Below, in pieces: positions 5,334 through 58,298 of a stretch of DNA of 64,000 nucleotides (position 1 is its first letter; each line of letters starts with the position of its first letter). Location of the stretch: positions 927 to 64,926 of the forward strand of contig JBQTIG010000038.1 of NCBI GenBank assembly GCA_052388375.1. The letters are read 5' to 3'. The position numbers and the translations under genes were made by a program. This DNA is from Planctomycetaceae bacterium (GTDB lineage Bacteria > Planctomycetota > PLA2). Under the pieces are notes generated by a model, which did not search any database, had not been told where the DNA came from, and worked only from the letters and a program-made list of their open reading frames with translations.

Positions 5334-5398
5334 TTGAGCCTCCCCCGCCCGGGGGGCCCGGGCTCAGGGGGAGGGGGGGCGAGGGCCGATAGGGGAGC

Positions 5399-13543: not shown

Positions 13544-13757
13544 CCGAAAGGTCCTCCAGGCACCTCTCTCTTTTCGGATCTATCGGGGAGCGGCCCAAAT
13601 CGTCCACGGCGGGTGCGCGGGGACGACGAAACCCGTTGTATCAGGGGGGTTTAGGTTTGGCGCCCCAGGAGCCGATTCCTTGGGGACGAGGCCTGTATCC
13701 CGTTCGCCCGCCCGGGGCGGCGGGGGTACGGGCCGGCACTTCGAGAGGAGCGATGCG

Positions 13758-14575: not shown

Positions 14576-16276
14576 ATGACCGCACCCGCCGTGCGCGGCG
14601 GCTCCGCCGTCTCCGGCGGAGCCCGCTCCGAGAGGGTTCGCGCCGGAGCTCTCGAGGTGGACCGCCACCCGGTCACGAACGGGCGGTACGCCGCTTTCGT
14701 CGAGGAGACGGGCCACCGCCCCCCCTGCTACTGGCCCGGGGGCCGGCTGCCCGCGAGCCTCGTGAACCACCCGGTGGTGGGCGTCGACCTCTTCGACGCC
14801 TTGGCCTTCGCACGCTGGGCCGGCGGGGCGATCCCGACCGAGGAAGAGTGGCGGCTTGCGGCGGGGCCGGTCGCGCCCGGGGCCTACGCCTGGGGAGACC
14901 GTTTCGAAGGAGGCCGCTGCAATACGGTGCGCAGCGGACACAAGGGCACGACGCCGGTGGACGCCTTTCCCGGCGGGGCGGCGCCGAGCGGCTGCCTCGA
15001 TCTCTGCGGCAACGTCTGGGAGCTGACCGTGACGCCCTATCCGGGGGATGCCGAGGCGATCGTCGTCAAGGGAGGCTCCTGGTACGACTATCCGGTCCAC
15101 GCGCGGCTCGATTCCCGGTTCCGCGCGCCGATCGCGCGCGGGGGCCCCACCACTGGACTCCGCCTCGTCTACGGCCGCCCCTGGGCCGCGCCGGCGTGCA
15201 TCCCGGCGGAGCTCGTCGAGGAGTGCATGCGCTTCCGCAAGCGGAAGGAGGGGGAGCGCGAGGGGGAGGAGGCGGGGGCCCAGGAGTTCGCGGCCACCCT
15301 GCAAGCGCTCCAGCGGGAGGTGGAGGCGCGGATCGTCGACCTGGACGAGGCCGCCGCCGATGCGGGCCTCGACGTGGTCGCCGCGCTGGACCGTTTGGAG
15401 GAGGTGCTCGAGGCGGCGCCACCCGAGGAGCCTGGCGCCCCGGCGCTTCCCGTGCCCGCGCCGCCCTCTCCCCCGCCCCGGAACTCCACCCTCCTGCAAG
15501 CATCCCCCTCGCGATTTCGCGCGCATCCCCTGGCGGTCGCCGGCATACTCGCGTCCGCGCTCCTGCTCGTGGGGTGGCTCGTGGTTTCCGTGAGCGCCAC
15601 GCGCGGCGCGGGCCGCGTTCCCTCGCGGGAGCGCGCCACGGAGGAGGCAAGAACTCCTACGCCGGAGGTGTCGCGGTCCGCCGCCCCCCCCGACCGCGCC
15701 GCGGTCCGGGAGGCGCTGCGGGCCCTCGCGGAGGGTTCCGACCGCAAATGGGCGGAGGCGGAGACCCGCCTCCTCGCGCTCGGCGCCTCGGTGCGTCCGG
15801 ATCTCGAGGAGGCCCTCGCGAAGGGGCCAAACCCCAAGACCGAGTCCTCCCTCCGCTACCTCATCGCGCTGATCGAGGAGGCGGCCGAGCCGTCGGGGAA
15901 GCCGCCTCGCGCGGCGGAGGGGCGGCTGCGACCGGGGCTCCTCTTCTGCTTCGCCTTCCTCGACCAGGGCACGATGGCGGAGGCGCGCAAGGTGCGCCTC
16001 ACCGCCGCGGCGGAAGGGGTGCCCTTCCTCGCGCTCTACAACGGCCCCGCCCCCGCGTCCGAGGTGCTCCAGTCGACCGCCGCCGCCCTGCGCGGGTCCG
16101 AGGTCGCCTTCGACGCCGACGGCTCGCTCTCCGCGCTCCTCCGCGCCCAGAGATCGCCCCATATCGCCGCGCTGGGACAGGATCTCCAGCCCTACGCCAC
16201 GCACACCGGCCCGATCGGTCGGGCGGCTATCGCGGAGATGGCGCGCACGCTCCGCACCATCCTGCGCGGATGGTGA
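14576..16276 (+). CDS. Membrane protein with N-terminal FGE/SUMF1 domain, one TM helix and a C-terminal helical domain
   Basis: DRHPVTNGRYAAFVEETGH, GNVWELT and GGSWYD are formylglycine-generating-enzyme-fold signatures. A TM helix (AVAGILASALLLVGWLVVSV) lies around residue 320. Confidence 0.75.
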   Translation: MTAPAVRGGSAVSGGARSERVRAGALEVDRHPVTNGRYAAFVEETGHRPPCYWPGGRLPASLVNHPVVGVDLFDALAFARWAGGAIPTEEEWRLAAGPVAPGAYAWGDRFEGGRCNTVRSGHKGTTPVDAFPGGAAPSGCLDLCGNVWELTVTPYPGDAEAIVVKGGSWYDYPVHARLDSRFRAPIARGGPTTGLRLVYGRPWAAPACIPAELVEECMRFRKRKEGEREGEEAGAQEFAATLQALQREVEARIVDLDEAAADAGLDVVAALDRLEEVLEAAPPEEPGAPALPVPAPPSPPPRNSTLLQASPSRFRAHPLAVAGILASALLLVGWLVVSVSATRGAGRVPSRERATEEARTPTPEVSRSAAPPDRAAVREALRALAEGSDRKWAEAETRLLALGASVRPDLEEALAKGPNPKTESSLRYLIALIEEAAEPSGKPPRAAEGRLRPGLLFCFAFLDQGTMAEARKVRLTAAAEGVPFLALYNGPAPASEVLQSTAAALRGSEVAFDADGSLSALLRAQRSPHIAALGQDLQPYATHTGPIGRAAIAEMARTLRTILRGW

Positions 16277-21149: not shown

Positions 21150-23363
21150 ATGCGCCTGCTGGCCGCCCTCCTCGCGTTCGCCCTCCCCGCCCTCGCGCAG
21201 GGCCTTCCCCCGGCGAGCCGTATCGACGGCTGGACTTCCCAGAAGACGCAGCAGCGTCTGCGCCTCGAATGGGACTCGGTTCCCGACGCCACGCCGATCA
21301 AGCTCCCCGACGGGACCACCGAGCCCGCGCAGTCGCCCTGGCCGTTCCTGCTCTACGTCCAGAATCTCGACACCAAGTCGAGCGAGAAGATCGACGCCAA
21401 CATCCTCTCGGACACCCGCTTCTCCCTCGCTTCGCGAGTCTGCCGGATCATCCGCATCTCCCCCACCAAGGCGATCGACTTGCCCTACCTCGCCGTGGTG
21501 GAGGGCATCAAGGACCCTTCCATCGTCGTGTTCGACCGCGACTTCACCGTGGTCGGCGTTCTCAACGAGCAAAAGGAGTTCACCGCCGACCGCTGCCTGG
21601 GGCTCATGGCGAAGGCGATCGACGCGGCCTGCACGCGGCCCCTGGGGCCGTGGCTGAAGGAGTACGTCACGCTGCTCCAGGACGCGGAGAAGCTCTGGAA
21701 GGAGGAGCGGCGCATCGAGGACCTCGCGTCGCGCTCGGGCGACAAGAGCGAGGCGGACCGCCAGAAGGGGTTCCGGGAGGTAGAGGAGCTGGAACAGGCG
21801 CTCAAGGCGGAGGAGGAGAAGCTGCTCGATCGCGAGGAGGCGCTCAAGGCTTCCATGGCGGTGAAGGCCGAGGAGGCGGCGGCGCTCCCGACGACCACCG
21901 GGAAGGGCCGGGACAAGCGCGCCTTGACGCCGCAGGAGATGGAGGCCATGGGGGCCTTCCGTCGCTTCGCCCGCGACAAGAACCCGCTCGTGCGCGCCGC
22001 CGCGGTGGAGGATCTCGGATCCGTCGATTCGGCCCCCATCGTCGACTTGATCCTCACCGCCGCCAACGACGTCGATGTGCGCGTGATCCGCGCCGCGGGG
22101 GTGGCACTCGGGAAGATGCGCGCTCCCGAATCCCTCGATGCCATGACCGCGGCCCTGGCGGCGGGCAAGTCCTCCACCCGCGAGGCTGCGCTGCTCGGCT
22201 TCGCCCACGGCGTGCCCCACGCCGCCGCGGTGGCCGGCATCGTGGCCTGCCTCGAGAGCGGGAGCGACGACCAGCGCCGCTACGCGATGGAGGCGCTCGC
22301 GCGCCAGCGCGATCCCGCCGCGGTGGAGCCCCTGATCCGCGGGGTGCAGCGCGGACTACCCGCGCTGCGGGTTCTGGCCGCCACCGCCCTGGGCGAGATC
22401 CGCGCGCCGGCGGCGGCGGCCGCTCTGCTCGCCTGCCTCGCAGAGAGCGATTGGTCGCTCAAGAAGGCGGCGGCGGAGGCCCTCGGCAAGATACGCGTGA
22501 GGGAGGCGATCGAACCCCTTCTGGCGCGGCTCGAAGCGGAAGAGGGGCTCATGCTGGAGGTGATCCAGGCGGCGCTCGTCTCCACGACCGGCCAGGACTT
22601 CGGGTACAAGATCGAGAACTGGAAGCGCTGGTGGGTCATGGCCGGTCCCACCTTTCGCGTACCCACCGACGCGGAAGTCTTGAAGGCGAGGGCGCTGGCC
22701 GAGAAGGCGCTCGAGGGCTACGCCAAGCCGGACAAGCGCAAGTACCACAAGATCGAGACCCTCTCGCGCAAGATGGTGTTCATCATCGACATCTCCTCCT
22801 CCATGGGGGACAAGATCATCATCCCGCCGGACGCGCCGGCCTCCGCGGCGGAGGAGTTCCCCGACCGCATCAAGATGGAGATCGCGAAACGGGAGCTGAT
22901 CGAGATCCTCGCGACGCTGGACGGCAACGTCTACTTCAACATCATCGTGTTCGCGGGCCGCGCGAAGCTCTGGCAGGACACTCTGGTGCCGGGCTCGATG
23001 CGCACGGCGGCGATCAAGTTCGTGGCGGACCTGAAGCCGATCGCGCAGGGCGGCCGCAAGTCGGGCGGCGACGAGCAGAAGACCAACACCTACGGCGCCC
23101 TGGCCGCCGCCTTCGAGCAGAGCGACGCCGCCATACCCAACTGGAAGTCGCGGTCGCAGGTGGACACCATCTTCCTCGTGACCGACGGGCTCCCCACGAT
23201 CGGGGACATCGTCGATGTGCCCAAGCTCATCGACGCGGTGACCGAGTGGAACCGCACCCGCGGCGTGGTCATCCACGTCATCTGCTTCAACAAGCAGGAC
23301 GGCCAGCGCCTCGCGCCCTTGGCCACGCGCAACGGCGGGAAGTACGTGCTGCGGGGGTTCTGA
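21150..23363 (+). CDS. Secreted HEAT-repeat + von Willebrand factor A domain protein (paralog 1)
   Basis: A signal peptide is followed by a coiled-coil region, PBS-lyase-type HEAT repeats (LVRAAAVEDLG, VRVIRAAGVALG), a GQDFGYKIENWKRWW motif and a VWA domain with an imperfect MIDAS (FIIDISSSMGD; the canonical DxSxS has I at the second position). Confidence 0.8.
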   Translation: MRLLAALLAFALPALAQGLPPASRIDGWTSQKTQQRLRLEWDSVPDATPIKLPDGTTEPAQSPWPFLLYVQNLDTKSSEKIDANILSDTRFSLASRVCRIIRISPTKAIDLPYLAVVEGIKDPSIVVFDRDFTVVGVLNEQKEFTADRCLGLMAKAIDAACTRPLGPWLKEYVTLLQDAEKLWKEERRIEDLASRSGDKSEADRQKGFREVEELEQALKAEEEKLLDREEALKASMAVKAEEAAALPTTTGKGRDKRALTPQEMEAMGAFRRFARDKNPLVRAAAVEDLGSVDSAPIVDLILTAANDVDVRVIRAAGVALGKMRAPESLDAMTAALAAGKSSTREAALLGFAHGVPHAAAVAGIVACLESGSDDQRRYAMEALARQRDPAAVEPLIRGVQRGLPALRVLAATALGEIRAPAAAAALLACLAESDWSLKKAAAEALGKIRVREAIEPLLARLEAEEGLMLEVIQAALVSTTGQDFGYKIENWKRWWVMAGPTFRVPTDAEVLKARALAEKALEGYAKPDKRKYHKIETLSRKMVFIIDISSSMGDKIIIPPDAPASAAEEFPDRIKMEIAKRELIEILATLDGNVYFNIIVFAGRAKLWQDTLVPGSMRTAAIKFVADLKPIAQGGRKSGGDEQKTNTYGALAAAFEQSDAAIPNWKSRSQVDTIFLVTDGLPTIGDIVDVPKLIDAVTEWNRTRGVVIHVICFNKQDGQRLAPLATRNGGKYVLRGF

Positions 23364-26617: not shown

Positions 26618-27790
26618 CTACTTCTTGGCGTATTGGGTGCGGACGTACTCTTGCCAGCGGGCATGGAGGACGTTGGGGGTGACGCCGAAGGCGTACTCGA
26701 TGCATTGCGCGGCGGTGGGCTTCTCCACGGTGTCGTCGATCTTGTCGAAGATCTTCGCGAATCGGATCGGGTCGGTGGCGATCATCCACTCCACGATCGA
26801 CCAGCTGAGCCCCTGCTCCTCGCCGGACAGTTCGCCGGGTTGGAGCTTCTCGCACCACTGGCCCAGCGGCGCGTCCTTGCCGCGGCGGACGATGTTGAGG
26901 ATGGTCGATTTCCATTCGGGCTTCTGGAACATCGTGGGCGCCTTTCCCTCGGACCAGCAGAAGGTGTTCGGCGAGGTCGCCTCGCGCCGCTCGTAGTAGT
27001 GCGCCAGGCCCTCCTCGAGCCAGGCCGGCGTCTCGCGGTAGTAGTTGCCGGCGCCGTCGGCGAGGTTGTGCGCCACGTTGTGGAAGATCGTGTTGTTCAG
27101 CTGGCGGTCCCCCCCGGGAACCTGCTGGGCCGCGTGGGTGAACATCATGAAGTTCGGCTCGCCCCGGTTGTGGTGCTGGATGCCCGCCTTGTCGTTGGAC
27201 TTGCCGATGAACTGGTCCACGAGGGAGTGGTGGTCGGCGTACTTCTCGAACAGGTAGAGCTCGTAGGGAGCCCCCATGCCGAGGTAGGGCTTGGCGATCG
27301 CCGTGAGCGCGGCGAAGTGGGCGTAGAGCCGCTCCATGCGCACATGGTAGAGGTGCGCCCGCTCGTGGGGGTCGAGCATCGTGCCCTGCAGGCCCGCCGT
27401 GATCTTGGGGAAGATCGCCTTCAGCCGCTCGAAGTCGCTCCAGTAGAAGACGCTGTCGGACGGCTTCACCTTCTCGCCGTGGAGGGTGCTCAGGATCTTG
27501 AAGTGGGGCGTCTGGATGGCGATCCACTTCCCCTCCACCTGGAGCTTCTGCACCAACTCCCCCACCGGCACGCGCATCATGGAGATGGGCTTTCCCTCCT
27601 CCGCCGGCAGTATCCCCTCCTCGATGCACCGGGTGCAGGTCCAGGGGGTGAAGAGGATCTCCAGGGGCGTCCCCGGCGTGCGCGGATGGGACTCATCCAC
27701 GCGATCGGATCCCGCCGCCGCGGGACTCGCGACGGCTACGAACGCCAGGCTGGCGACGAAGGCGACGGACAGGGGGGTGGCCCGCTTCAT
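26618..27790 (-). CDS. Secreted protein of unknown function, in a locally low-GC region
   Basis: It has a signal peptide (MKRATPLSVAFVASLAFVAVASPAAAG). The first ATG is at 27790. GC is about 62% against a flank of about 72%, and the protein is rich in K/N/Y/W/H. Confidence 0.6.
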   Translation of the reverse strand: MKRATPLSVAFVASLAFVAVASPAAAGSDRVDESHPRTPGTPLEILFTPWTCTRCIEEGILPAEEGKPISMMRVPVGELVQKLQVEGKWIAIQTPHFKILSTLHGEKVKPSDSVFYWSDFERLKAIFPKITAGLQGTMLDPHERAHLYHVRMERLYAHFAALTAIAKPYLGMGAPYELYLFEKYADHHSLVDQFIGKSNDKAGIQHHNRGEPNFMMFTHAAQQVPGGDRQLNNTIFHNVAHNLADGAGNYYRETPAWLEEGLAHYYERREATSPNTFCWSEGKAPTMFQKPEWKSTILNIVRRGKDAPLGQWCEKLQPGELSGEEQGLSWSIVEWMIATDPIRFAKIFDKIDDTVEKPTAAQCIEYAFGVTPNVLHARWQEYVRTQYAKK

Positions 27791-27863
27791 GCCCGATCGA
27801 TTATGCAATGAAACGGGCCCTTCCGCTCCCGGAAGGGCCCGCCCGACTGCCGGTTCCCTACGC

Positions 27864-28640
27864 TCAGGCCGGGAAGAGGTCGCAGCGCACCTCGGTCAGC
27901 ATGGTCTTGAGCTTCTCGATGACGCGGGAGTGGATCTGGCAGACGCGCGACTCCGTGAGGCTCAGCACCTTCGCGATCTCCTTCATGGAGAGCTCCTCGA
28001 AGTAGTAGAGCGTCACGACGATCTGCTCCTTCCGGTTGAGGTGCTTGCAGGCGAGGTCGCGCAGGTCGCTCTTGTGCACCGCCCGCGTGGGGTCGTCGCC
28101 GCCTTGGTCCTTGACCAGATCGAGGATGCGGTTGGAACCCTCCTCCGACCCGTCGGAGTTGTCGTCGCTCAGGCTGAGCATGGAGACGGGCTTGCTGTCC
28201 TTCTCGATGCGCATGTACTCCCCGACGCTGCATTTCAGGGCGTCGGCCATCTCGAACACCGTCGCCTCGCGCCCGAGGCGGGTCTGGAGCTTGCCGCAGG
28301 TGCGGTCCACCGTCGTCGCCTTGTGGCGGACCAGGCGCGGCACCCAGTCGAGGGCGCGCAGCTCGTCGAGGATGGCGCCGCGGATGCGGTTCACGCAGTA
28401 GGTCTTGAAGAGGACGCCGCGGTCGATGTCGAACCGGTCGATCGCCTCCAGCAGACCGAAGGTGCCCATGCTGACCAGGTCGTCCAGCTCGACCGACGCG
28501 GGAAGCGTCATGAGCATCCGCTCCGCCACGTACTTCACCAGCGGCAGGTAGGTCTCGATGAGCTTGTTCTTGTAGATCTTCCTGCGCGTGCGCTTGTACT
28601 TCACCCAGACGTCTCGTACCGCGCGATCGTCGATCCGCAT
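27864..28640 (-). CDS. RNA polymerase sigma factor, sigma-28 (FliA/WhiG) family
   Basis: It has region 2 (LIETYLPLVKYVAERM, DLVSMGTFGLLEAIDRFD), region 3 and a region 4 helix-turn-helix (LSMKEIAKVLSLTESRVCQIHS). Confidence 0.85.
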   Translation of the reverse strand: MRIDDRAVRDVWVKYKRTRRKIYKNKLIETYLPLVKYVAERMLMTLPASVELDDLVSMGTFGLLEAIDRFDIDRGVLFKTYCVNRIRGAILDELRALDWVPRLVRHKATTVDRTCGKLQTRLGREATVFEMADALKCSVGEYMRIEKDSKPVSMLSLSDDNSDGSEEGSNRILDLVKDQGGDDPTRAVHKSDLRDLACKHLNRKEQIVVTLYYFEELSMKEIAKVLSLTESRVCQIHSRVIEKLKTMLTEVRCDLFPA

Positions 28641-29059
28641 GGCTCAGCCTCCTCGTCTCCGTCCGCCCGTCGTGGCGCAGGCCTGCCGAACGGCTCCCGG
28701 CGAGGGGCAAGGGGGCGCAAAACGCCGAGCGCCCGGAGCCATGGCGGCATCCGGGCGCGCGGGGTGCGCGGTCCAGACCCGTGTGGCAGCTGGCTGCCTT
28801 GCCGCGCGCGGGCGCGGTTTAGGCCCTCTAGCTTTGCGCCGCCGGCTTTCGCCGACTTTGCCCTTTCAGCCGAGTTCCGACCGATACAGTCTGCTCGAAA
28901 AGAACCAAGTCCTTTTGGGACCGCGAGAAGACTAGCCCGCCGATGTCGCGAGGCAAGCGCAACCCACAATTATTTTAGACATTTTCTCAACCCTTTATGC
29001 GGCAACGGGTTGCGATCGGACCGCCGCGGGCGGCCGCGCATGCGCGTCGTATGTCCGGA

Positions 29060-30619
29060 TCAATCCACCCAGTCCCGGACCACGCGGAACCCGATGTCCA
29101 GCGCCCGCGACGCGGGGTCGGCGTGGTCGCGCCACTGGAGCGCGAGGGTCGCCGGATCGCTTTCATAGGAGCCCCCCCTCACGACACGGTGGCCGCCTTC
29201 GGCGGGTCCTTGGGGGTCGACCCGGGAAGAGCGCATGTACCAGCGCGGCTCGAAGCGATCGAGGCACCACTCGCGCACGTTGCCGCTCGTGTGCAAGAGC
29301 GAAAACGGGCCTTCGCCCTCCGGCAGGGAGTCCGCGGGCGCCGGGCCCACGGACTTGGTCACGCAGAGCGTGGAATCGAGGGTCGCTCCCCACGGGTAGG
29401 CGAGTCCGTCGGGCCCCGCCGCGGCCCGCTCCCACTCCGCCTCGGTAGGCAGGCGTCCACCCACCCAGCGGGCGTAGGAGAAGGCCGCGTACCAGGAGAG
29501 ACCGCGCACGGGATAGGTCTCGGTCCCGGCCGGTGCAGAGTCGCTGGTCCATCCCGCAGGCCGCAGATTCACGCCGGGGTCCTCGGGATGCCGGACCGCG
29601 GCGTCGTTCATTCGCCTCATGTAGGCCAGGAACTCCTCGTACTGGCCCGCGGTCACCTCGCTGCGGTCGATGAGGTAGGGCCTCAAGAACATGAGGTGCG
29701 CGGGCCCCAGAGGGGGCTTGTCCCCCGCCCCCCTCATGCCGATCCCCGCGGGGATCAGCACCATCTCCTGCCCGTCGGCGGCACGGAGAAGCGTGCGTTG
29801 GCCCCGGGCGGTCGTTCGCAGGTAGGTCAGGCCGGGGGGCGCCCGAAAGAGCGTGAACTGGGACTCGCCGATCCGCACGCGATTCTCGATGTCGCGCAGG
29901 TCGAGGTCGGCGTGCGGCGCAAGATTCCGCGCCATCGAGGTGTCGAACCGCAGCCGAACCACGCGCGCATGCACGGTCTCGCAGTCCGCGTGGCTGCGCA
30001 CCGGGGAGGGCACGGCCGCGGGGGGCATGGCCGACAGGGGGATTTCGACATCGAGCCGGGCGCGCTTGCCGTCGAGCCCTTCCGCCACCGCCTCCACGCG
30101 TGCCCCGACTTCATGCAGGACGCAGACGAATCGGTCCCCCGCCGGGGAGAGCGCCGCCGGCTGACCCGCGACGAGCACGCGCACGACGCCGCGCGGAGCG
30201 CAGGTTCCGCTCACTCGGATCGAGTCGGCGTCCACCTCCACGCCGGTGACGGCGAACCCCTCGGAAGGGCTGGAAGCTTCGAACGCGTCGGGGGGGCCCA
30301 GGAAGATGCTGCGCGCCGCGGGGGCGTCGGCTTCCGGCAGCTCGCCCTCCTCCCAGAATGGGCTCCGGGAGCCGCTCCTGGGGATCGCGAAAAAAGCCAC
30401 GAGGCCGAGCGCCGCCACGCCAACCAGGAGGATCATGGGACGGGCGCGGAGGCCTCGGCGGAACCTGAGCGCCGGCGGCTGGACGCCGCCGGCACGGGCG
30501 CTCCGCGCGGGAGTCGCGAGGATGGGCGCCGTGCCCACGCGCTGGGGGGAGTCCCCGCAATGGGGACAGCGGCGCATGTGGTCCGGATAGACCTCGGAAC
30601 AGTCGAGACACTTCGGCAT
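29060..30619 (-). CDS. Membrane protein: N-terminal zinc ribbon, one TM helix and a C-terminal FGE/SUMF1 domain
   Basis: The zinc ribbon reads CLDCSEVYPDHMRRCPHCG and the TM helix MILLVGVAALGLVAFFAI. DRSEVTAGQYEEFLAY, GNVREW and RGGSYESD are FGE-fold motifs. It is the last gene of the ECF sigma operon. Confidence 0.75.
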   Translation of the reverse strand: MPKCLDCSEVYPDHMRRCPHCGDSPQRVGTAPILATPARSARAGGVQPPALRFRRGLRARPMILLVGVAALGLVAFFAIPRSGSRSPFWEEGELPEADAPAARSIFLGPPDAFEASSPSEGFAVTGVEVDADSIRVSGTCAPRGVVRVLVAGQPAALSPAGDRFVCVLHEVGARVEAVAEGLDGKRARLDVEIPLSAMPPAAVPSPVRSHADCETVHARVVRLRFDTSMARNLAPHADLDLRDIENRVRIGESQFTLFRAPPGLTYLRTTARGQRTLLRAADGQEMVLIPAGIGMRGAGDKPPLGPAHLMFLRPYLIDRSEVTAGQYEEFLAYMRRMNDAAVRHPEDPGVNLRPAGWTSDSAPAGTETYPVRGLSWYAAFSYARWVGGRLPTEAEWERAAAGPDGLAYPWGATLDSTLCVTKSVGPAPADSLPEGEGPFSLLHTSGNVREWCLDRFEPRWYMRSSRVDPQGPAEGGHRVVRGGSYESDPATLALQWRDHADPASRALDIGFRVVRDWVD

Positions 30620-30657
30620 GGACTCAGTCCCCTATCGGCAGGGGGGCCGTGCCGGAC

Positions 30658-31692
30658 TTACCCCCCCGAACCTGGGCGGGGCCGGGGCGGGCGGACGCCG
30701 CGGATGGCCTGCAGCGCCCTGAAGAAGTCCTCCGGCGTCTCGCAGGAGGCGAGGTGGAGGAGCATTTCGCGAGGCAGGCTCATCCGGTCGAGGAGGTCGA
30801 GGCGCGCCAGACCCCGCGAATCGCGCTCCCAGGCGCGACGTTCCGCCGGGTCGGTGGGGGCGGGGCCCATGAGGGCCGCGATCCCGGGATCGAGGAACGG
30901 GCAGTCCTCGGGGCGGAACGCATAGCGGACCAGCTCGCGCTCGCGCGGAGTGAGGAAGACGCTCGGGCCCTCCACGAGGTAGTAGAGCTCGCGCTCCAGG
31001 TCCGCCTGGATCCGTCTCGTCTCCCCCCCCCGCACCTGCAGAAGCTGCGCGCGAATCAGATCGACGGCGGCGCGCTCCTCCTCGTGTGCGCTCTTCTCGA
31101 CGACCTCGGCGGCGGCGGCGCGCCTCTCCTCCTCGGTGAACTCGCGCCCCGCCTTGCGCTCCGCCTCCTGCACGAGCGCCAACACATGCCAGGCGACGAT
31201 CCCCCTCGTGCGGGCGCGCAGGGCCTCGTGCGCCTCACGCGCCGCAGCCGCGTCGAAGGGCTCGGGAAACAGGCGCAGGAACGTCGCGCGGCGCTCCTCG
31301 AGGTCGGGGAGGCGACGCAGCGCAAAGTCGAGCTGGATCTGGCGCCAGCGCATCAGGACCAACCGCCCCGCGAGCGGTCGAGCCTCGGGGGGGAGCGCCG
31401 CCAGCGCCTCGCGCAGCTCCCGGGGCACGAGTTCGTCCGCCCGCTCGCGGGGCGCACGCAGGAGCATCTCCCGCAGCTGGCCCTCCTTCAGCGCATCGCG
31501 CTTTTCCGGAGCCATCGCCCGATAGCGGCGATAGCGCTCCAGCACCATGCGCTGGCGCCAGAGCGGCAGCTGCCCCCACTCCCCCTCCCCGATCAGCCGG
31601 GCGACGGTGGCGGTCTCCTCGGGCGTGGCCGGTTCGTCCTCCCCGGCGCAGAGCGGGGCGGCGGCCAACAGGAGGATGAGCAGTCGAAGCAT
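30658..31692 (-). CDS. Periplasmic alpha-helical protein of unknown function
   Basis: It has a signal peptide (MLRLLILLLAAAPLCAG), is rich in R/E and has high GC3. Confidence 0.55.
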   Translation of the reverse strand: MLRLLILLLAAAPLCAGEDEPATPEETATVARLIGEGEWGQLPLWRQRMVLERYRRYRAMAPEKRDALKEGQLREMLLRAPRERADELVPRELREALAALPPEARPLAGRLVLMRWRQIQLDFALRRLPDLEERRATFLRLFPEPFDAAAAREAHEALRARTRGIVAWHVLALVQEAERKAGREFTEEERRAAAAEVVEKSAHEEERAAVDLIRAQLLQVRGGETRRIQADLERELYYLVEGPSVFLTPRERELVRYAFRPEDCPFLDPGIAALMGPAPTDPAERRAWERDSRGLARLDLLDRMSLPREMLLHLASCETPEDFFRALQAIRGVRPPRPRPGSGG

Positions 31693-31695
31693 GCT

Positions 31696-32115
31696 TCAGG
31701 AAGCGTCCAGCTCCGCGAGGACCTCCTGCTTGAGATCGCGCAGAGCGAGGCTGCCGTACGTGTCCACATCAGCCTCCCAGAAGTACTCCTGGGGCTCTTC
31801 CGTCGCGACCGGCTCGCTGGGCCCCGTTTCGCCGAGCGGCGGGAGGAGGGCGAGAAGGAGCGCCGCGGCGGCGGCCGCAAGCGGCAGAACGAGGCGAAGG
31901 AGGGGGGCGGGGCTGCGCGCGCGCCTCAGCACCCGCGCCGCGAAATCGGCGCGAGCCGTGGCGCCCGGGAGCGCCTCCAGCGCCTTGTCGACCGCCGCGA
32001 GGGCAAGCAGTTCGCGCCGGGCGGCGGGATCGGCCTCGATCTGCGCGCGAACGCGAGCCGCCTCGTCGGAGGGCAGCTCGCCGTCGAAGACGGCGTTCAA
32101 GGTATCGCGGTTCAT
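31696..32115 (-). CDS. Anti-sigma factor (single TM helix)
   Basis: It overlaps the sigma-gene stop as ATGA. It has an N-terminal anti-sigma domain and the TM helix LLRLVLPLAAAAAALLLALL. Confidence 0.6.
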   Translation of the reverse strand: MNRDTLNAVFDGELPSDEAARVRAQIEADPAARRELLALAAVDKALEALPGATARADFAARVLRRARSPAPLLRLVLPLAAAAAALLLALLPPLGETGPSEPVATEEPQEYFWEADVDTYGSLALRDLKQEVLAELDAS

Positions 32116-32732
32116 ACCGGCTCACTCCGGGCGGCCTTCGCAGGGCGCGCCGCGTGCAAATAGGGCTCGATCCGCGCGCGCACGTTTTCCCGCGCGCGGG
32201 TAAGCAGGCTCTTCACCGCCGGGACGGAGAGCTCAAGGGTCTGGGCGAGCTCCTCGTAGCCAAGGCCGTGGAACTTGTTCATGAGCAATGCCAACCGCTG
32301 CCGCTCGGGGAGCGCGTCCACCGCGGCACGGACCTGACCGCGCAGCTCTTCGCGGGCGAGCGCCTCGACGGGTCCGGCGCCAGCATCCCCCGTCGCGGCC
32401 GGCGCGGCGCCCTCCTCTTCACCCGCCTCCCGCAGGGGAGAAGCGCCGTGGGTCGCGCGCGTCTTGCGCCTCCGCATCTCGTTCAGGCAGGCGTTGGCGG
32501 CGACCCTGTAGAGCCAGGTGGTGAACTTCGCCTCGGGGCGATAGCGCTTGCGGGCGCGATAGATCCGGAGGAATACCTCCTGGGAGAGATCCTCGGCGTC
32601 GGCGCGGTTTCCCAGGTAGCGGTAGGTGAGGCTCATGACGCTGTTTTCGTGGCGCTGCACGAGGACCGAGTAGGCCGACTCGTCGCCCGCCTGGAAAGCG
32701 AGCATGAGATCCACGTCGGACCGCTCGGTCAT
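32112..32732 (-). CDS. ECF-subfamily RNA polymerase sigma-70 factor
   Basis: It has region 2 (DLSQEVFLRIYRARKRY, FTTWLYRVAANACLN) and a region 4 helix-turn-helix (GLGYEELAQTLELSVPAVKSLLTRAR). Confidence 0.85.
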   Translation of the reverse strand: MTERSDVDLMLAFQAGDESAYSVLVQRHENSVMSLTYRYLGNRADAEDLSQEVFLRIYRARKRYRPEAKFTTWLYRVAANACLNEMRRRKTRATHGASPLREAGEEEGAAPAATGDAGAGPVEALAREELRGQVRAAVDALPERQRLALLMNKFHGLGYEELAQTLELSVPAVKSLLTRARENVRARIEPYLHAARPAKAARSEPV

Positions 32733-32823
32733 CGGGAGCTTGCCATTCCTGGAACCCGCAGGGGAGGGGCCGGTTTCGCCCCGCCCTAACCCGGGAATTG
32801 CCATGATGTTAGCCTTACTCCAC

Positions 32824-33831: not shown

Positions 33832-33882
33832 GCGGGCCCCCGTTGCCCGTTGCGTGCAACTTGCCTCATAATCTCCTCCACG

Positions 33883-35322
33883 ATGGCTTTCTTGAAACCG
33901 CTGCCCCTTCTCCTCCTCTTCCTTCTCCTCACCTCCTGCCAGGACAAGGACCCCGCACCGGCAGCCCCTGGCGGAGGCGAGTCCCGGACGCTGGGCCTCG
34001 TGCTGGCCAAGCCGGAGCAGCTGCGCGGCATCCCCCTTGCGACCGCCCCTTATTCGGGGGACGAGCTGCCCTCCAAGGTGGATCTCTCCGAGAAGATGCC
34101 GCCGCCCGGGTTCCAGGGGAAGCAGAGCTCCTGCGTCGGCTTCTCGGTGGCCTACGCGCTCAAGAGCTACCAGGAGCTCCTCGAGGAGGGAAAGCCTCGG
34201 TCGGCCGGCGGCGGGCGCGCCGACCCGACGCGGGTCTTCAGCCCGGCCTTCGTCTACAACCAGATCAACAACGGTCGTGACGGGGGCGCCACCTTCATCG
34301 ACGCGCTCAACCTGCTCAGCCAGCAGGGTGCGACGCCTCTGGCCGAGATGCCTTATGACGAGAACGACTTCACGCGCCCGCCCTCCGGCCGGGCTGCCGC
34401 CGCGGCGCGCCGCTACCGCATCGATTACTGGCGCCAGGTGAACGTTGCGGACGTCAAGGAGGTGAAGGCGCACCTCAACGCCGGGTACCCCGTGATGATC
34501 GGGGGCCCAGTGGACGACGGCTTCCTCGCCATGCAGCGCGGAGGGGTATGGCGGTCGCCGAGCGGGCAGGTGAAGGGCGGCCACGCGATGCTCCTGGTCG
34601 GCTACGACGACGCGAAGAACGCCTTCCGTCTCATCAATTCGTGGGGCCCGGGCTGGGCCGACGACGGGTTCGGCTGGATCGACTACAACTACTTCCGCAC
34701 CGTCATCGTCGAGGCCTACGTCGCCAAAGACGCTCATAACGGGCGCGCCTCCGACGAGCGCCCCGATCCGACCCCCGATCCGACTCCGGATCCGACTCCC
34801 GATCCCACGCCGGATCCCACGCCGGATCCCACGCCCGATCCCACGCCCGATCCGCAGCCGTTCACGCCCCCCGAGGTGAGCTTCGCCATCACCAGCGTGC
34901 AGCACAACACGCAGTTCCCCGATCAGGAGGAACTGGGCTACTTCATGCGCTTCGACGGCACTCTCCAGATCCCGCCCGGAGCCGGCCGCGTGGACCAGAT
35001 CGTCGTGTTCTTCTATTACGACGCGGGCAAGGGCAACAAGGGCAAGGCGGTGCGCGGCTTGGACAAGCACTACGCGACCGTGGATGGAAGCGCCGCCTGC
35101 GGCACCGCCCCCTATGAGATCCCTCCCGAGGGGTTCGACACGACGTGGGCCTGCTGGATCCCGTACGCGGCGATGGATCTGCCCGCCGGGGTCTGGCGGC
35201 AGACGCCCCAGGGGCCGATCTACGCGCCGGCCACCACCGCCCTGGTCGCGGAGCCGGTGCTCTTCATCGACAAATTCGCCGTCCGCTCCGGCGGCGTGGT
35301 GCAGTTCCTCGTGACGAAGTAG
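33883..35322 (+). CDS. Papain-family (C1) cysteine peptidase lipoprotein with (PDPT)n linker and C-terminal domain
   Basis: It has a lipobox (LLTSCQD), the catalytic Cys context QGKQSSCVGFSVAYA, His in GGHAMLLVGYDD and Asn in NSWGPGWADDG. Confidence 0.8.
   Translation: MAFLKPLPLLLLFLLLTSCQDKDPAPAAPGGGESRTLGLVLAKPEQLRGIPLATAPYSGDELPSKVDLSEKMPPPGFQGKQSSCVGFSVAYALKSYQELLEEGKPRSAGGGRADPTRVFSPAFVYNQINNGRDGGATFIDALNLLSQQGATPLAEMPYDENDFTRPPSGRAAAAARRYRIDYWRQVNVADVKEVKAHLNAGYPVMIGGPVDDGFLAMQRGGVWRSPSGQVKGGHAMLLVGYDDAKNAFRLINSWGPGWADDGFGWIDYNYFRTVIVEAYVAKDAHNGRASDERPDPTPDPTPDPTPDPTPDPTPDPTPDPTPDPQPFTPPEVSFAITSVQHNTQFPDQEELGYFMRFDGTLQIPPGAGRVDQIVVFFYYDAGKGNKGKAVRGLDKHYATVDGSAACGTAPYEIPPEGFDTTWACWIPYAAMDLPAGVWRQTPQGPIYAPATTALVAEPVLFIDKFAVRSGGVVQFLVTK
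34762..34857 (+). repeat. In-frame 12-nt tandem repeat (8x) encoding (PDPT)8 linker, PDPT PDPT ... PDPQP
   Basis: ccgatccgactcc / ccgatcccacgcc units. The repeat could expand or contract by slippage. Confidence 0.85.
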
Positions 35323-53421: not shown

Positions 53422-55017
53422 TCAGTCGCTGCCCAGGGGCTTGGGCTTGCGGATGTCGACGCAACTGCCGCCGTTCTGCTCGGCCAGAGCGCGCATGAAG
53501 TCGGCCATCTCGTCGGGGTCCTCGTACTTGTCCGCCTTCTCGATGGCGGGCCGCCCCATGACCAGCGCGATGCAGTGGATGATGACCCGTCGGAAACGGT
53601 TGCAAGCGCGCACCTTCGCCAGGATCTCCTCCGGCACGATGGTCCGCCCGGTGGAGGGCATCCCGTCGCTCAGGAAGTAGATCGTGTCCACCAGCGGGTT
53701 GTCTTCGAAGGCCTGCATCAAGGTGTCGTGGGTGTTGGTGCCGCCCCGCGGCAGGAGCTGCGCCTCGCTCCAGGAGAGCGCGTCCGCCACGTTCTTCGGC
53801 GAGGCGACCACCTCCCCCTTCTTCTGCCAAATGCTCGGCGCCCCGGCGAAGGTCATGACATTGAAGTAGGTCTTCTCGTCGAGGCTGCGGATCGCCTTGT
53901 AGAGCTCCTTCCGAGCCGTTTCGATGCGGTTGGGGTGGTACTCGGGCCAGGCCATCGAGCCGGAGACGTCCACGATGAAGAGCACGCGGTCGGAGAGGAT
54001 CTTGAAATCGAAGAAGCTGGCCACGCTGATGCTCTCGCCCGCGGCGAGCTTGCCCTCCTCGGTGAGGCGGCCCGTCTCCTTGTCGCGCCACCATTTCTCC
54101 CAGACCTCAGGGGCGTAGCGGAAGTCCTGCCCGCTGATTGCCTTGAGCGCGCCGTAGGCCTTCTCCTTCGCGCGCAGGTTGCCCTCCCGCAGGAGCAGCG
54201 TCAATTCGGGGAAGAGCGCCTCGGCCTTTCGTGCGCCCGCAGCGACCGCCGCCGCCTCGCGCACGATGGGCACCTCGTCCTGGAACAGGGCGCGCATCGC
54301 ATCGAGGAGATCGGGGGCGCTTCCCAGGCCGAGGAGCACGTCGGCGGCGGCGAGGCGCAGCCTCCAGTCCGCGGAACCCGCAGCGGCGCGCAGCAGCGCC
54401 TCCGCGCCCGGCCCGCCGATCCGCCCCAGGGCGACGTGGATCTCGAAGAGAAGCGCCATGTCGGGTCGCTCGCGCTTGAGCGCCCGGGCGAGCAGCGCGG
54501 TGAGCGGCTCGCTGGCCTCCTTCGTGCCGAGCACGCCGAGCGCCTGCACGCAGCCGAGCTGGATCTCGTCCACAGGGCTCGAGAGGAGCTTCTCCACGAG
54601 CCACGGGCCCACCTGCGGGTCGGAGGAGAGCGCGAGGGCGCCGCCGACGTAGGATGCGAGCACGGTCCGGGACTCCCGTTGGACGGTCGCCACCATGCGC
54701 TTGACCGCGGCCAGATCCCCGATGCCGCCGATCGAGACCATGGCGTTGATGCGCGCACGGATGTCGGCGTCCTGGTCGAGGATCGCCTGCAGGCGCTTGC
54801 AGGTCTCTTCGTGGCGCACGCCGGCCAGTTCGCGGGCGATCTCGCGGCGCCGGCGCCGTTGCCTCACGTCCTGGTTGCGGGCCAGATCCTGGTACTCCGC
54901 CCACAACTCCTCCAGGCGCTCGTTCGCCGCGCGCGGGTCGGGGGCGCCTTCCTCCTCGGCGGAGAGCAAGGCGGGCGCGAGCATCAGGAGCAGGCTGGCC
55001 GCGACGCGGGCGCGCAT
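53422..55017 (-). CDS. Secreted HEAT-repeat + VWA domain protein (paralog 2)
   Basis: It has a signal peptide, HEAT repeats, a GQDFRYAPEVWEKWW motif and a VWA domain with a DxSxS MIDAS (FIVDVSGSMAW). It shares architecture with 21150-23363. Confidence 0.8.
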   Translation of the reverse strand: MRARVAASLLLMLAPALLSAEEEGAPDPRAANERLEELWAEYQDLARNQDVRQRRRRREIARELAGVRHEETCKRLQAILDQDADIRARINAMVSIGGIGDLAAVKRMVATVQRESRTVLASYVGGALALSSDPQVGPWLVEKLLSSPVDEIQLGCVQALGVLGTKEASEPLTALLARALKRERPDMALLFEIHVALGRIGGPGAEALLRAAAGSADWRLRLAAADVLLGLGSAPDLLDAMRALFQDEVPIVREAAAVAAGARKAEALFPELTLLLREGNLRAKEKAYGALKAISGQDFRYAPEVWEKWWRDKETGRLTEEGKLAAGESISVASFFDFKILSDRVLFIVDVSGSMAWPEYHPNRIETARKELYKAIRSLDEKTYFNVMTFAGAPSIWQKKGEVVASPKNVADALSWSEAQLLPRGGTNTHDTLMQAFEDNPLVDTIYFLSDGMPSTGRTIVPEEILAKVRACNRFRRVIIHCIALVMGRPAIEKADKYEDPDEMADFMRALAEQNGGSCVDIRKPKPLGSD

Positions 55018-56738: not shown

Positions 56739-58232
56739 TCACCGCCAGTGCGGCTGGAGCGTCGTTTCCAGCGCGTCGGGGCGCCGCTGGACCGCCTCGA
56801 TGACGACCTCGCTGGCACGGGCGCCCTCGATCACGAGATAGCCGTCGAAGGAGACGATCCTCCGGCGCGCAAACACCGTAGAGAGCAGCACCCGGGCGCG
56901 CCGCCCGGACGCAAGCGTGCCGGGATACTGGTCCACTAGGCGGCCGTCCCCGTCGTAGAACTTGAAGACGAGGCGCGCCTCCCGCTGCCCGAGATTGAGC
57001 GTGAACAGTTCGGCATCGATGGCGCGGCGCACCTCCATCTCCAGCCGCGGGAAGACTGCTCTGCCGGCCTCCGCACCGGGCTCGGGCCGGAAGATGTCGG
57101 CCTCCGAGTCCGGCTCGGGGTCGGGGTCGGTCCGGTCGCGGGGCGCCGCGGCGTCCCCCGGAATGCGCAGGAAGTAGACCGAGCCGCCATCGGCGCGGGC
57201 GGCAAGGGACCAGCCTGCCCTCGTCGGGTTGACCACGAGTTCCCGGATGGCGCCGCCCGCCAGGATGGTCTCGTGCAAGAGCCGCCCCCGGTTGGCGTCG
57301 ATCACCCCGATCCAGGCCTTGCCGTCCCGCATGCCGGCGACGGCCACGGAGTCCTCCCCAAGCGCCGAGATGCAGGTAAGCTCGCCCTTTCCGAACACCG
57401 CGGCCCAGACCGGATCGCGCTTGCCCGTGGCATCGTCCTTGAAGATGTCCTTGAACTTGTGGACCGAGGGACGCGCATCGGGATCGAGGAGGAAGACCGC
57501 CGCATCGTCGCCCCTCCGCCCCGCCACCCAGATCCTGCCCGGCGTGGCGACAACGGCCGAAGGCACGAATCCGTCCGCCTTGTACGGATAGTCCTGGGTC
57601 AGGTCCCATCCGCCTCCCTCCCTCCCGCCGAAGCGGAGAAGCGAGGGACCTTCGGCCGCGACGAAGAAGTCGGGCTTGCCGTCCCTGTCGACATCGCAGG
57701 AGCAGCGCGTCGCCGCGAGGAACTTGCGGCCGGGGCGAGCGAGGAAATCGACGCGACCTACCCCAGCCTCGTTCCAGACGGCGAGATAGAGGTTGGCCCC
57801 CTCGGCGAGGCAGAGGAGCGCCTCGGAGTCGTCGCCGCCGAAGCCGAGGAGCCGGTACTCCCCGCCGCTCCCCACCGCGAGACCGCGGCTGTCCGCGGTC
57901 CAGCCGCGCCCCTGGGGCCAGGTACGGTGCAGAAGCGTCGTCGCCCCCCGGCGTTCGAACGCCAGGAGCCGCTCGCCCTGGCTGCAGAGGCCCCCGGCCG
58001 CTCCGGCGATCGTCGAGACGGCGACGGACCGCGCGGCCGTGTCGACGATCCAGAACTCCGTGCGCGCTCCGCGGGAAACCAGGGCGGCGAGCGTGTGGCT
58101 CTCCCCGCGGCGCAGCGCCGTGAGGCCGACGATGGTGCCGTCGAGGTCCTTCTTCGAGACCACCACCAGCGGGTCGGCGGCGGCCGGCGTGGAGAGCAGT
58201 GCGAGGAGGGCGGGCAGGGCGAGGAATCGCAT
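56739..58232 (-). CDS. Secreted protein of unknown function (FG-GAP/beta-propeller-like)
   Basis: It has a signal peptide (MRFLALPALLALLSTPAAA) and DxDGxxD-like segments (CDVDRDGKPDFF). The upstream 650 codons of the 1154-aa ORF are antisense to the radical SAM gene and low-complexity. Confidence 0.5.
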   Translation of the reverse strand: MRFLALPALLALLSTPAAADPLVVVSKKDLDGTIVGLTALRRGESHTLAALVSRGARTEFWIVDTAARSVAVSTIAGAAGGLCSQGERLLAFERRGATTLLHRTWPQGRGWTADSRGLAVGSGGEYRLLGFGGDDSEALLCLAEGANLYLAVWNEAGVGRVDFLARPGRKFLAATRCSCDVDRDGKPDFFVAAEGPSLLRFGGREGGGWDLTQDYPYKADGFVPSAVVATPGRIWVAGRRGDDAAVFLLDPDARPSVHKFKDIFKDDATGKRDPVWAAVFGKGELTCISALGEDSVAVAGMRDGKAWIGVIDANRGRLLHETILAGGAIRELVVNPTRAGWSLAARADGGSVYFLRIPGDAAAPRDRTDPDPEPDSEADIFRPEPGAEAGRAVFPRLEMEVRRAIDAELFTLNLGQREARLVFKFYDGDGRLVDQYPGTLASGRRARVLLSTVFARRRIVSFDGYLVIEGARASEVVIEAVQRRPDALETTLQPHWR

Positions 58233-58298
58233 CCTCCAAGGGTACCCTTTTCCAGCCGACAGAAGGAGGGGAGTAGAATCTCTCACTCCGGCCTCCCC

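Follow-up and report, generated by a model that had tools for sequence, protein, structure and literature searches.

We analyzed a 64,000-nt stretch of the genome of a Planctomycetaceae bacterium (GenBank assembly GCA_052388375.1, contig JBQTIG010000038.1, positions 927 to 64,926 of the forward strand; here referred to as the window) and focused on an operon of four minus-strand genes at 29060-32732. These genes encode an extracytoplasmic function (ECF) sigma factor, an anti-sigma factor, a secreted protein of 344 amino acids (aa) that we call P344, and a membrane protein with a formylglycine-generating enzyme (FGE) fold that we call FGE1. The window has a G+C content of 70.7% and was annotated using Pfam scans of selected open reading frames (ORFs), of which 29 were scanned. 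A first-pass annotation, made from the sequence alone, had described four tightly packed or overlapping genes at this position, and we recovered these ORFs with the domains that it had described. The operon and its associated elements are, in the direction of transcription and in window coordinates:

32753-32777, minus strand: ECF-type promoter motif of the GAAACC-N-GGGTT form (CGAAAC, 15 nt, GGGTT), ~20 nt upstream of the start of the sigma factor gene
32112-32732, minus strand: ECF (group 4) sigma factor, 206 aa; Pfam Sigma70_r2, r4_2, and Sigma70_ECF; NCBIfam TIGR02937
31696-32115, minus strand: anti-sigma factor, 139 aa, single-pass; ATGA overlap with the sigma factor gene
30658-31692, minus strand: P344, 344 aa; starts 3 nt past the stop codon of the anti-sigma factor gene
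30631-30639, minus strand: GCCGATAGG box, conserved and 12 nt ahead of the FGE1 start codon; a candidate for a −10 element of the sigma-28 type or for a translational element
29060-30619, minus strand: FGE1, bitopic membrane protein of 519 aa; starts 38 nt after P344

An ECF sigma factor and a single-pass anti-sigma factor share a conserved promoter

The first gene of the operon encodes an ECF (group 4) sigma factor. The only sigma factor domains in the protein are sigma-2 and sigma-4 (Sigma70_r2, E = 4.6e-22; r4_2, E = 5.4e-15), and it scores 110.8 bits against the superfamily model TIGR02937, for which the cut-off is 42.9, while none of the named NCBIfam equivalog models attains its cut-off. 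Using an alignment of orthologs, we set the start of the protein at MTERSD (position 32732). The sigma factor and anti-sigma factor genes overlap by 4 nt (ATGA), as read directly in the sequence, and this overlap fits translational coupling. The anti-sigma factor has a single transmembrane (TM) helix at residues 73-91 with four K/R residues before and none after it, which supports a cytoplasmic N terminus (N-in); the N-terminal part is anti-sigma-like. Thus, the ECF sigma factor and the single-TM anti-sigma factor with an ATGA overlap are present as the first-pass annotation had proposed. The periplasmic tail of the anti-sigma factor comprises 48 aa, is acidic, and contains the motif Y.WE.D.DTYGSLGL, which is conserved in the ortholog alignment and would be suitable as a docking peptide. 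Because the same alignment contains no His/Cys zinc ligands (signature H-x3-C-x2-C), the protein is not a zinc-binding anti-sigma factor of the ZAS type.

The DNA upstream of the sigma factor gene is unalignable between related loci except for one block, CGAAAC-N15-GGGTT, which is conserved in 9/9 loci that cover the region. This motif is present once in the 64-kb window (0.07 expected) and once per orthologous locus. ECF promoters typically have a −35 element with an AAC core, so autoregulation of the operon from CGAAAC-N15-GGGTT, presumably by way of recognition by its own sigma factor, is probable. The ECF factor is thus accompanied by both an adjacent anti-sigma factor gene and a conserved promoter with an AAC core.

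In all 10 related loci, which are from Planctomycetota metagenome-assembled genomes (MAGs), the gene order is ECF sigma factor, anti-sigma factor, P344, FGE1, FliA/WhiG sigma factor, and DUF1570-like protein. Identities to the proteins of the window are 56-69% (ECF sigma factor), 38-46% (anti-sigma factor), 36-46% (P344), and 41-48% (FGE1). All loci examined have the FGE1 and P344 orthologs next to each other, and the two were on one contig in all paired cases checked. The identical gene order in 10/10 related loci supports that the arrangement of the operon is not due to chance.

P344 is a secreted helical protein with a remote relation to DUF3106

The first-pass annotation had suggested that the third protein is periplasmic and helical. 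This agrees with the signal-peptide-like N terminus of P344 and with its AlphaFold2 (AF2) model, which is all-alpha with a predicted local distance difference test (pLDDT) score of 81.9. Foldseek found no PDB structure similar to this model at E ≤ 0.001, and homology searches returned only orthologs inside the clade. A profile of the P344 family matched 29 sequences only among 1.84 billion representatives. The weak matches of this profile are true DUF3106 proteins (E = 3e-7 to 7e-5), aligned over the N-terminal 90 residues; because this relation is remote and partial, we do not count P344 as a DUF3106 member. Two DUF3106 genes were looked up (loci L088 and L089), and both are located directly after a gene for an ECF-type sigma factor and a gene for a small protein. 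For this reason, and judging from gene order, the first three genes of the operon resemble, in enlarged form, a recurrent and so far unstudied trio of ECF sigma factor, small protein, and DUF3106 protein. We found no relevant literature on DUF3106.

FGE1 combines a zinc ribbon, a TM helix, and an FGE fold that lacks the catalytic Cys pair

FGE1 consists of the following parts; FGE2, a second FGE-fold protein in the window, is listed last:

30557-30610, minus strand: cytoplasmic C4 zinc ribbon, residues 4-21 (CxxC...CxxC); invariant Cys, below-threshold Pfam matches
30380-30436, minus strand: TM helix, residues 62-80, N-in; Kyte-Doolittle score 2.58, K/R bias
29780-30259, minus strand: periplasmic beta-strand domains, about residues 121-192 and 214-280; AF2 strands with pLDDT 81-93
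29075-29770, minus strand: periplasmic FGE-sulfatase-fold domain, residues 284-515; PF03781, E = 3e-40
14576-16276, plus strand: FGE2, with a cytoplasmic FGE domain at residues 20-198 (PF03781, E = 1e-29) and a TM helix at residues 319-337; outside the operon

The layout proposed earlier for the fourth protein, i.e., a cytoplasmic zinc ribbon, one TM helix, and a C-terminal FGE fold, is therefore borne out by the invariant Cys residues, the TM helix at 62-80, and the PF03781 match at 284-515. In the zinc ribbon, C4, C7, C18, C21, R16, R17, P19, and G22 are invariant among 24 sequences, and the Pfam matches to Zn_Ribbon_1 and DZR (E = 0.004) are below threshold. The 15 residues before the TM helix contain five K/R residues and those after it two, and the AF2 model (overall pLDDT, 73.8) has a helix at 62-77. 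The beta-strand domains match no Pfam family. A database record of the identical FGE1 protein gives a Planctomycetaceae MAG as its source and "formylglycine-generating enzyme family protein" as its name. We identified ~70 full-length orthologs with 40-84% identity, for which all available names and record titles are those of Planctomycetota MAGs; outside this group, matches cover the FGE domain only.

Both FGE1 and FGE2 have the C-type-lectin-like FGE-sulfatase fold as judged by PF03781, and the best Foldseek matches of FGE1 are the FGE structures 6s07 and 2q17 (E = 3e-15; template modeling score of ~0.6 on the target). In human FGE, the catalytic, copper-binding Cys pair is C336/C341. The LCHDSYC segment of Streptomyces coelicolor FGE aligns to ESDPA-- in FGE1; the consensus of the FGE1 family at this position is RGGSxASPxE, with Cys in 0/24 sequences, while FGE2 and its 13 orthologs have GGSWYDYPAHARLD. 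The Cys pair, which the first-pass annotation had singled out as the residues to inspect, is thus absent from FGE1 and 23 orthologs as well as from FGE2 and 13 orthologs. FGE also has two Ca2+ sites (in human numbering, N259/I260/D273/F275 and N293/G296/A298/E300), and as judged by alignment only, FGE1 does not have both: the loop of Ca site 1 is replaced by a stretch ~11 residues shorter, and Ca site 2 is partly kept, with H443 in place of Asn and with G446 and E450 retained. Lacking the Cys pair and, in the case of FGE1, also the Ca-site-1 loop, neither protein is a classical FGE.

We also compared FGE1 and FGE2 to enzymes of other activity that share the fold. The DinB Pfam domain is absent from both proteins, and scores against the NCBIfam equivalog models for EgtB, SenA, GldK, and PvdO are far under the cut-offs (EgtB TIGR03440, 69.6 bits versus 360; SenA, 69.3 versus 420). 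The proposed inspection for EgtB/PvdO-type iron ligands is not fully applicable, because the EgtB center also needs DinB. A sulfatase domain was found in none of the 29 ORFs scanned, and the sulfatase signature C/S-x-P-x-R is absent from any plausible ORF in the window, in agreement with the earlier observation that the window contains no sulfatase gene. With no Cys pair, no EgtB-type DinB domain, and no sulfatase found in the window, classical sulfatase maturation by FGE1 or FGE2 is unlikely, and a binding or sensing role, which the first-pass annotation had favored, is the better reading for these FGE-fold proteins. The name "formylglycine-generating enzyme family protein" is misleading for both.

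The nearest non-orthologous relatives of the FGE1 domain include the C-terminal ectodomains of two transmembrane Ser/Thr kinases, P0099 and P0106 (36-42% identity). These ectodomains are also without the catalytic Cys pair, and the alignment to P0106 additionally spans the residues directly before the FGE domain. A survey of kinases lists FGE-sulfatase among the kinase-associated domains and notes it for the Proteo1 kinase family. The relation to kinases bears on the possibility that FGE1 is an enzyme with other chemistry, e.g., a PvdO-like oxidase or an enzyme that modifies another envelope substrate. In favor of it, the sequence of the FGE1 domain is nearer to those of true FGEs from actinobacteria (E = 6e-22) than to those of GldK and PvdO, Ca site 2 is mostly retained (G446 and E450), and several His, Asp, and Arg residues are nearly invariant. 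Nevertheless, we consider such an activity extremely unlikely: the Cys pair, the Ca-site-1 loop, and the DinB domain are all missing, the PvdO, EgtB, and SenA equivalog models give 30-70 bits against cut-offs of 360-500, and the kinase-linked homologs argue for binding. We also considered that FGE1 could be the variable protein of a diversity-generating retroelement (DGR). FGE folds serve as DGR targets, and TvpA is among the PDB matches of FGE1; no reverse transcriptase was found among the scanned ORFs, and repeats were not specifically searched for.

A candidate envelope-signaling module

We propose that the operon is a self-contained, autoregulated ECF/anti-sigma envelope-signaling module with two lineage-specific extracytoplasmic partners, and we give this reading an even chance of being correct. 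There is good support for its ECF/anti-sigma part and for the loss of FGE catalysis; the roles assigned to P344 and FGE1, by position and analogy, are in our judgment evenly balanced between right and wrong. In the proposed mechanism, the anti-sigma factor would hold the ECF sigma factor at the membrane, and P344 and/or the ectodomain of FGE1 would bind an envelope ligand or the acidic tail of the anti-sigma factor. Such binding would modulate the stability of the anti-sigma factor, as RseB does for RseA, and the sigma factor, once released, would induce the operon from its own promoter. The zinc ribbon would give FGE1 a cytoplasmic contact. FGE1 itself would function as a noncatalytic binding receptor or co-regulator, similar to the ectodomains of Ser/Thr receptor kinases and to TagR.

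The first-pass annotation had placed FGE1 under the control of an envelope-stress sigma factor. In favor of this, the ECF promoter is conserved, and there is no terminator-like site between P344 and FGE1; against it stand the long spacers upstream of FGE1 in other genomes and the sigma-28-like box of its own, both described below. We regard ECF control of FGE1 as plausible but uncertain.

Alternatively, P344 and FGE1 could be outputs of the ECF regulon and not sensors, i.e., stress-induced envelope proteins such as a periplasmic, chaperone-like helical protein and a lectin-like binder, the latter of which captures or shields an envelope component. We regard this as possible but doubtful. Both genes are downstream of the autoregulated promoter with no terminator between them, and because the strict ECF motif is present once in the 64 kb scanned, the operon is the only visible target; moreover, one DUF3106 protein retrieved by the P344 profile has a weak match to the Pfam family Metal_resist (heavy-metal resistance). 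However, the motif was scanned for in just 64 kb of the genome, the family-wide invariance of the cytoplasmic zinc ribbon is hard to reconcile with a purely periplasmic effector, and the ectodomain has its closest relatives on receptor kinases.

Several observations weigh against the signaling module as proposed. The assignment of the anti-sigma factor is based on below-threshold matches (zf-HC2, E = 0.01; PRK13920, E = 6e-7; NCBIfam NF052375, E = 1.8e-4), and a search of PDB sequences with the anti-sigma profile gave no match. P344 scores 18.0 bits against DUF3106 (PF11304), which is under the gathering cut-off of 24.3. In addition, the whole neighborhood, including genes for an S26 peptidase, a NUDIX protein, the FliA/WhiG sigma factor, a DUF1570 protein, and HEAT/von Willebrand A (VWA) proteins, is syntenic in these genomes, and therefore the gene order may owe as much to common ancestry as to function. 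Finally, the spacer between P344 and FGE1 has a length of 38-42 nt for the window and the closest relatives versus about 100-380 nt in other genomes, and every locus has a (G/T)(C/T)CGAT(A/G)G box located 11-21 nt (57 nt in one) before the FGE1 start. With a long spacer that carries its own conserved box, FGE1 may be transcribed independently.

A conserved box upstream of FGE1 resembles a sigma-28 −10 element

The sigma-28 promoter consensus is TAAA, 15 nt, GCCGATAA. The box in the window, GCCGATAGG, matches the −10 element of this consensus at 7/8 positions. The corresponding −35 element is weak, i.e., TAAG, TCAG, or TAAA at N16-17 versus TAAA at N15, and is absent in several loci; GCCGATA[AG] is not enriched, with 10 occurrences found versus ~11 expected in 222 kb. 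Based on the box, FGE1 may have its own promoter, which is possibly dependent on the FliA/WhiG sigma factor; the other possibility is that the box functions in ribosome binding or translation.

An own promoter opens the possibility that FGE1 stands outside the ECF system as an independently transcribed neighbor, possibly a member of the FliA/WhiG (sigma-28) regulon with a tie to the adjacent sigma factor gene under c-di-GMP riboswitch control, and that the synteny is simply inherited. The conserved box and its 7/8 match, a spacer after P344 that is variable and sometimes long, the FliA/WhiG gene that is always next, and the synteny over the whole neighborhood are all in agreement with this scenario. 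We nonetheless consider it unlikely, since the −35 element is weak or absent, the motif is not enriched and could be a ribosome-binding or translational element, the spacer is just 38-42 nt in the closest relatives, and the FGE1 gene directly follows that of P344 in all of the loci examined.

Elsewhere in the window, a second exact copy of GCCGATAGG is present at 5385-5393 (plus strand), 6 nt before the ATG of an ORF of 804 aa (5399-7813). The encoded protein has no Pfam match and a signal-peptide-like start (MPRASLLLGLFLVVS). The position of this copy would fit a leaderless transcript from a sigma-28-type promoter. A metagenome scan gave only a sister contig (L093) with 83% identity, in which the box is conserved, and was uninformative. 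A GCCGATAA box before a 148-aa gene in locus L008 was rejected as a candidate, because the orthologous upstream regions have GGTAGCAT instead.

The adjacent FliA/WhiG sigma factor gene has a c-di-GMP riboswitch in its leader

The next gene after FGE1 (27864-28640, minus strand) encodes a FliA/WhiG sigma factor (TIGR02479, 248.9 bits versus a cut-off of 189.6). The gap of 419 nt between the two genes belongs to the leader of the FliA/WhiG gene and contains, from 5' to 3', a conserved sigma-70-like promoter block, a conserved hairpin, a cyclic di-GMP (c-di-GMP)-I riboswitch, and a GC-rich hairpin with a T-run:

About 28895-28990, minus strand: promoter-like block before the riboswitch (A-rich tract, CTTGCC, 16-17 nt, GGGCTAGTCTTC); conserved
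28908-28922, minus strand: conserved hairpin GGTC(C/T)CAAAAGGA(C/G)(T/A), after the promoter-like block
28782-28872, minus strand: c-di-GMP-I riboswitch in the leader of the FliA/WhiG gene; Rfam RF01051, 66.7 bits versus a gathering score of 35
Riboswitch in related loci: L001, 9759-9849; L003, 9690-9782; L004, 9766-9856; L006, 8765-8855; L007, 7002-7094
Riboswitch in related loci, continued: L008, 9019-9105; L009, 1723-1816; L011, 8710-8800; L012, 8830-8921

RF01051 was detected in the same place in 9/9 related loci, with scores of 62-78 bits including that of the window, and the riboswitch marks the 3' boundary of the ECF/FGE1 unit. The hairpin at 28908-28922, which was flagged in a terminator scan, was rejected as the terminator of the operon because it is downstream of the conserved fliA/whiG promoter and so is part of the leader. 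In the three loci that were folded, the aptamer is followed by the GC-rich hairpin with a T-run (about 28715-28760 in the window), which suggests that the riboswitch acts by transcription termination. Through this riboswitch, the second messenger would directly gate a sigma factor for motility or development.

The FliA/WhiG gene is followed in every locus by a gene for a secreted protein (26618-27808, minus strand; 396 aa in the window), with 48-60% identity. The protein scores 24.0 bits against DUF1570 (cut-off, 22) and below the cut-off against Peptidase_MA_2, and it contains an HExxH-like sequence, HNVAHNL. Its gene may be cotranscribed with the gene for the FliA/WhiG sigma factor.

The proximity of the two sigma factor genes allows an extended version of the signaling module, in which FGE1 would be a trans-envelope receptor of a new type and would link two sigma circuits, i.e., ECF and c-di-GMP/sigma-28. 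We regard this version as very unlikely. Transcription of FGE1 would then come from two promoters, the ECF promoter (by read-through) and an own promoter of the FliA/WhiG type. In its catalytically dead FGE groove, FGE1 would bind the conserved periplasmic tail of the anti-sigma factor or another envelope peptide, and a sigma or anti-sigma partner would receive the signal through the invariant cytoplasmic zinc ribbon, which would link the state of the envelope to the adjacent motility/development sigma factor controlled by the c-di-GMP riboswitch. If the sigma-28 link were true, the locus would join envelope sensing with c-di-GMP-controlled motility or development.

FGE2 belongs to a separate family

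The first-pass annotation had treated FGE1 and FGE2 as a pair of FGE-fold membrane proteins of opposite topology. The topology is as it had described. In FGE2, the FGE domain (residues 20-198) is N-terminal and precedes the TM helix (319-337). A signal peptide was found in 0/14 FGE2 orthologs, and the FGE domain of FGE2 is therefore cytoplasmic, while FGE1 is N-in with its FGE domain outside. From the N to the C terminus, FGE2 comprises a short FGE domain, an acidic helical linker, the TM helix, an extracytoplasmic helical segment, and a thioredoxin-like C terminus without CxxC; the last of these is based on weak but consistent matches to PDB entries of the thioredoxin family (E = 0.007-0.7; profile positions 460-574). 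More distant relatives of the FGE2 domain occur in fusions with NACHT, KAP NTPase, TIR, CHAT, and kinase domains, a pattern indicative of a cytoplasmic subfamily.

The pairing, by contrast, does not hold. FGE1 and FGE2 are of different subfamilies, and the FGE2 gene has a context of its own, being always located behind a Poly_export/SLBB (Wza-like) gene. In one genome, FGE2 and FGE1 are on different contigs, and no conserved ECF promoter was found upstream of the Wza-like/FGE2 genes. FGE2 is thus an unrelated neighbor, and we found no functional tie to the ECF operon or to FGE1. A near-copy of the ECF promoter, GAAACCCGTTGTATCAGGGGGGTT (GAAAC-N14-GGGTT; 13628-13651, plus strand), was rejected as a probable chance occurrence, given its 14-nt spacer and its lack of conservation in loci L086 and L087. 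GAAACCCGTTGTATCAGGGGGGTT is partly palindromic; the divergent region in which it lies is upstream of the Wza-like gene ahead of FGE2.

Other genes in the window

Between the NUDIX and S26 signal peptidase genes, the window contains a gene (33850-35322, plus strand) for a secreted protein of the papain family (Peptidase_C1) with a long linker of the (PDPT)n type and, at the C terminus, a domain of unknown family; loci L001, L003, and L004 have no counterpart at this position. Two proteins combine HEAT repeats with a VWA domain (21150-23363, plus strand, and 53422-55017, minus strand), and the gene for the former belongs to the conserved neighborhood of the related loci. At 57273-59882 (plus strand), an 869-aa B12-binding radical SAM protein is encoded that has a long N-terminal extension without a Pfam match.

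Comparison with known systems

ECF sigma modules are a major mechanism of bacterial signaling, and how they sense is obscure for most groups, especially in Planctomycetota. The locus described here is compact, conserved, and amenable to testing; in it, an FGE fold that is catalytically dead has apparently been recruited as an extracytoplasmic binding module beside an ECF sigma factor and its anti-sigma factor. For the DUF3106-type proteins, which are widespread and unstudied, the locus also provides an ECF context that recurs. Accessory envelope proteins are well known from ECF modules, as are noncatalytic FGE folds from signaling; what is new is the combination of an ECF sigma factor, a non-zinc anti-sigma factor, a DUF3106-like protein of 344 aa, and a protein with a zinc ribbon, a TM helix, and an FGE fold. 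In a literature search, we found no paper that links ECF sigma factors with FGE-sulfatase or DUF3106, and the main text of the ECF reclassification by Casas-Pastor et al. (2021) mentions neither. The four-gene combination, of which we found no description, is uncharacterized and confined to one uncultured lineage of Planctomycetota.

With the copper-dependent FGEs (SUMF1 and the enzymes of S. coelicolor and T. curvata), FGE1 shares the fold, much of the sequence, and part of Ca site 2. It differs from them in lacking the Cys pair and the Ca-site-1 loop and in being anchored in the membrane on the periplasmic side, and nearby sulfatases were not found among the window ORFs scanned. Tsi3, an FGE-like immunity protein of a type VI secretion system (T6SS), likewise has an FGE fold without catalytic cysteines and acts by protein-protein binding (10.1101/2021.05.21.445229). 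Unlike FGE1, Tsi3 serves in toxin neutralization and has no signaling context.

The Ser/Thr kinases P0099 and P0106 are, like FGE1, single-pass proteins with an extracytoplasmic, Cys-less FGE-fold domain, but they have a cytoplasmic kinase where FGE1 has a 22-residue zinc ribbon. We know of no ECF context for Ser/Thr kinases with FGE ectodomains. TagR (PA0071) of the H1-T6SS of Pseudomonas aeruginosa is annotated as an FGE-sulfatase-domain protein. It is a nonenzymatic accessory protein in trans-envelope signaling and functions upstream of the kinase PpkA in the threonine-phosphorylation pathway. FGE1 resembles TagR in having a periplasmic, noncatalytic FGE domain. In contrast to FGE1, TagR is soluble or outer-membrane-associated, has neither a zinc ribbon nor a TM helix, and signals to a kinase and the T6SS instead of an ECF sigma factor; no kinase or T6SS genes were seen among the window ORFs scanned. 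By analogy, FGE1 would at most work like TagR, and we do not place it as a TagR-type member.

The trios of ECF sigma factor, small protein (~110-140 aa), and DUF3106 protein in L088 and L089 have the same order as the first three genes of the operon. Compared to these trios, P344 is twice as long and below the DUF3106 cut-off, and it is followed by FGE1. The rpoE-rseA-rseB-rseC operon of Escherichia coli encodes an autoregulated ECF sigma factor, a cotranscribed single-pass anti-sigma factor whose cytoplasmic N terminus binds the sigma factor, and periplasmic and membrane modulators of the anti-sigma factor. P344 and FGE1 have no detectable similarity to RseB and RseC, and in the operon described here, the periplasmic part of the anti-sigma factor is ~48 aa and the promoter is CGAAAC-N15-GGGTT. 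The two operons are alike in their plan, with genes for an ECF sigma factor and a single-pass anti-sigma factor accompanied by further genes for periplasmic and membrane proteins.

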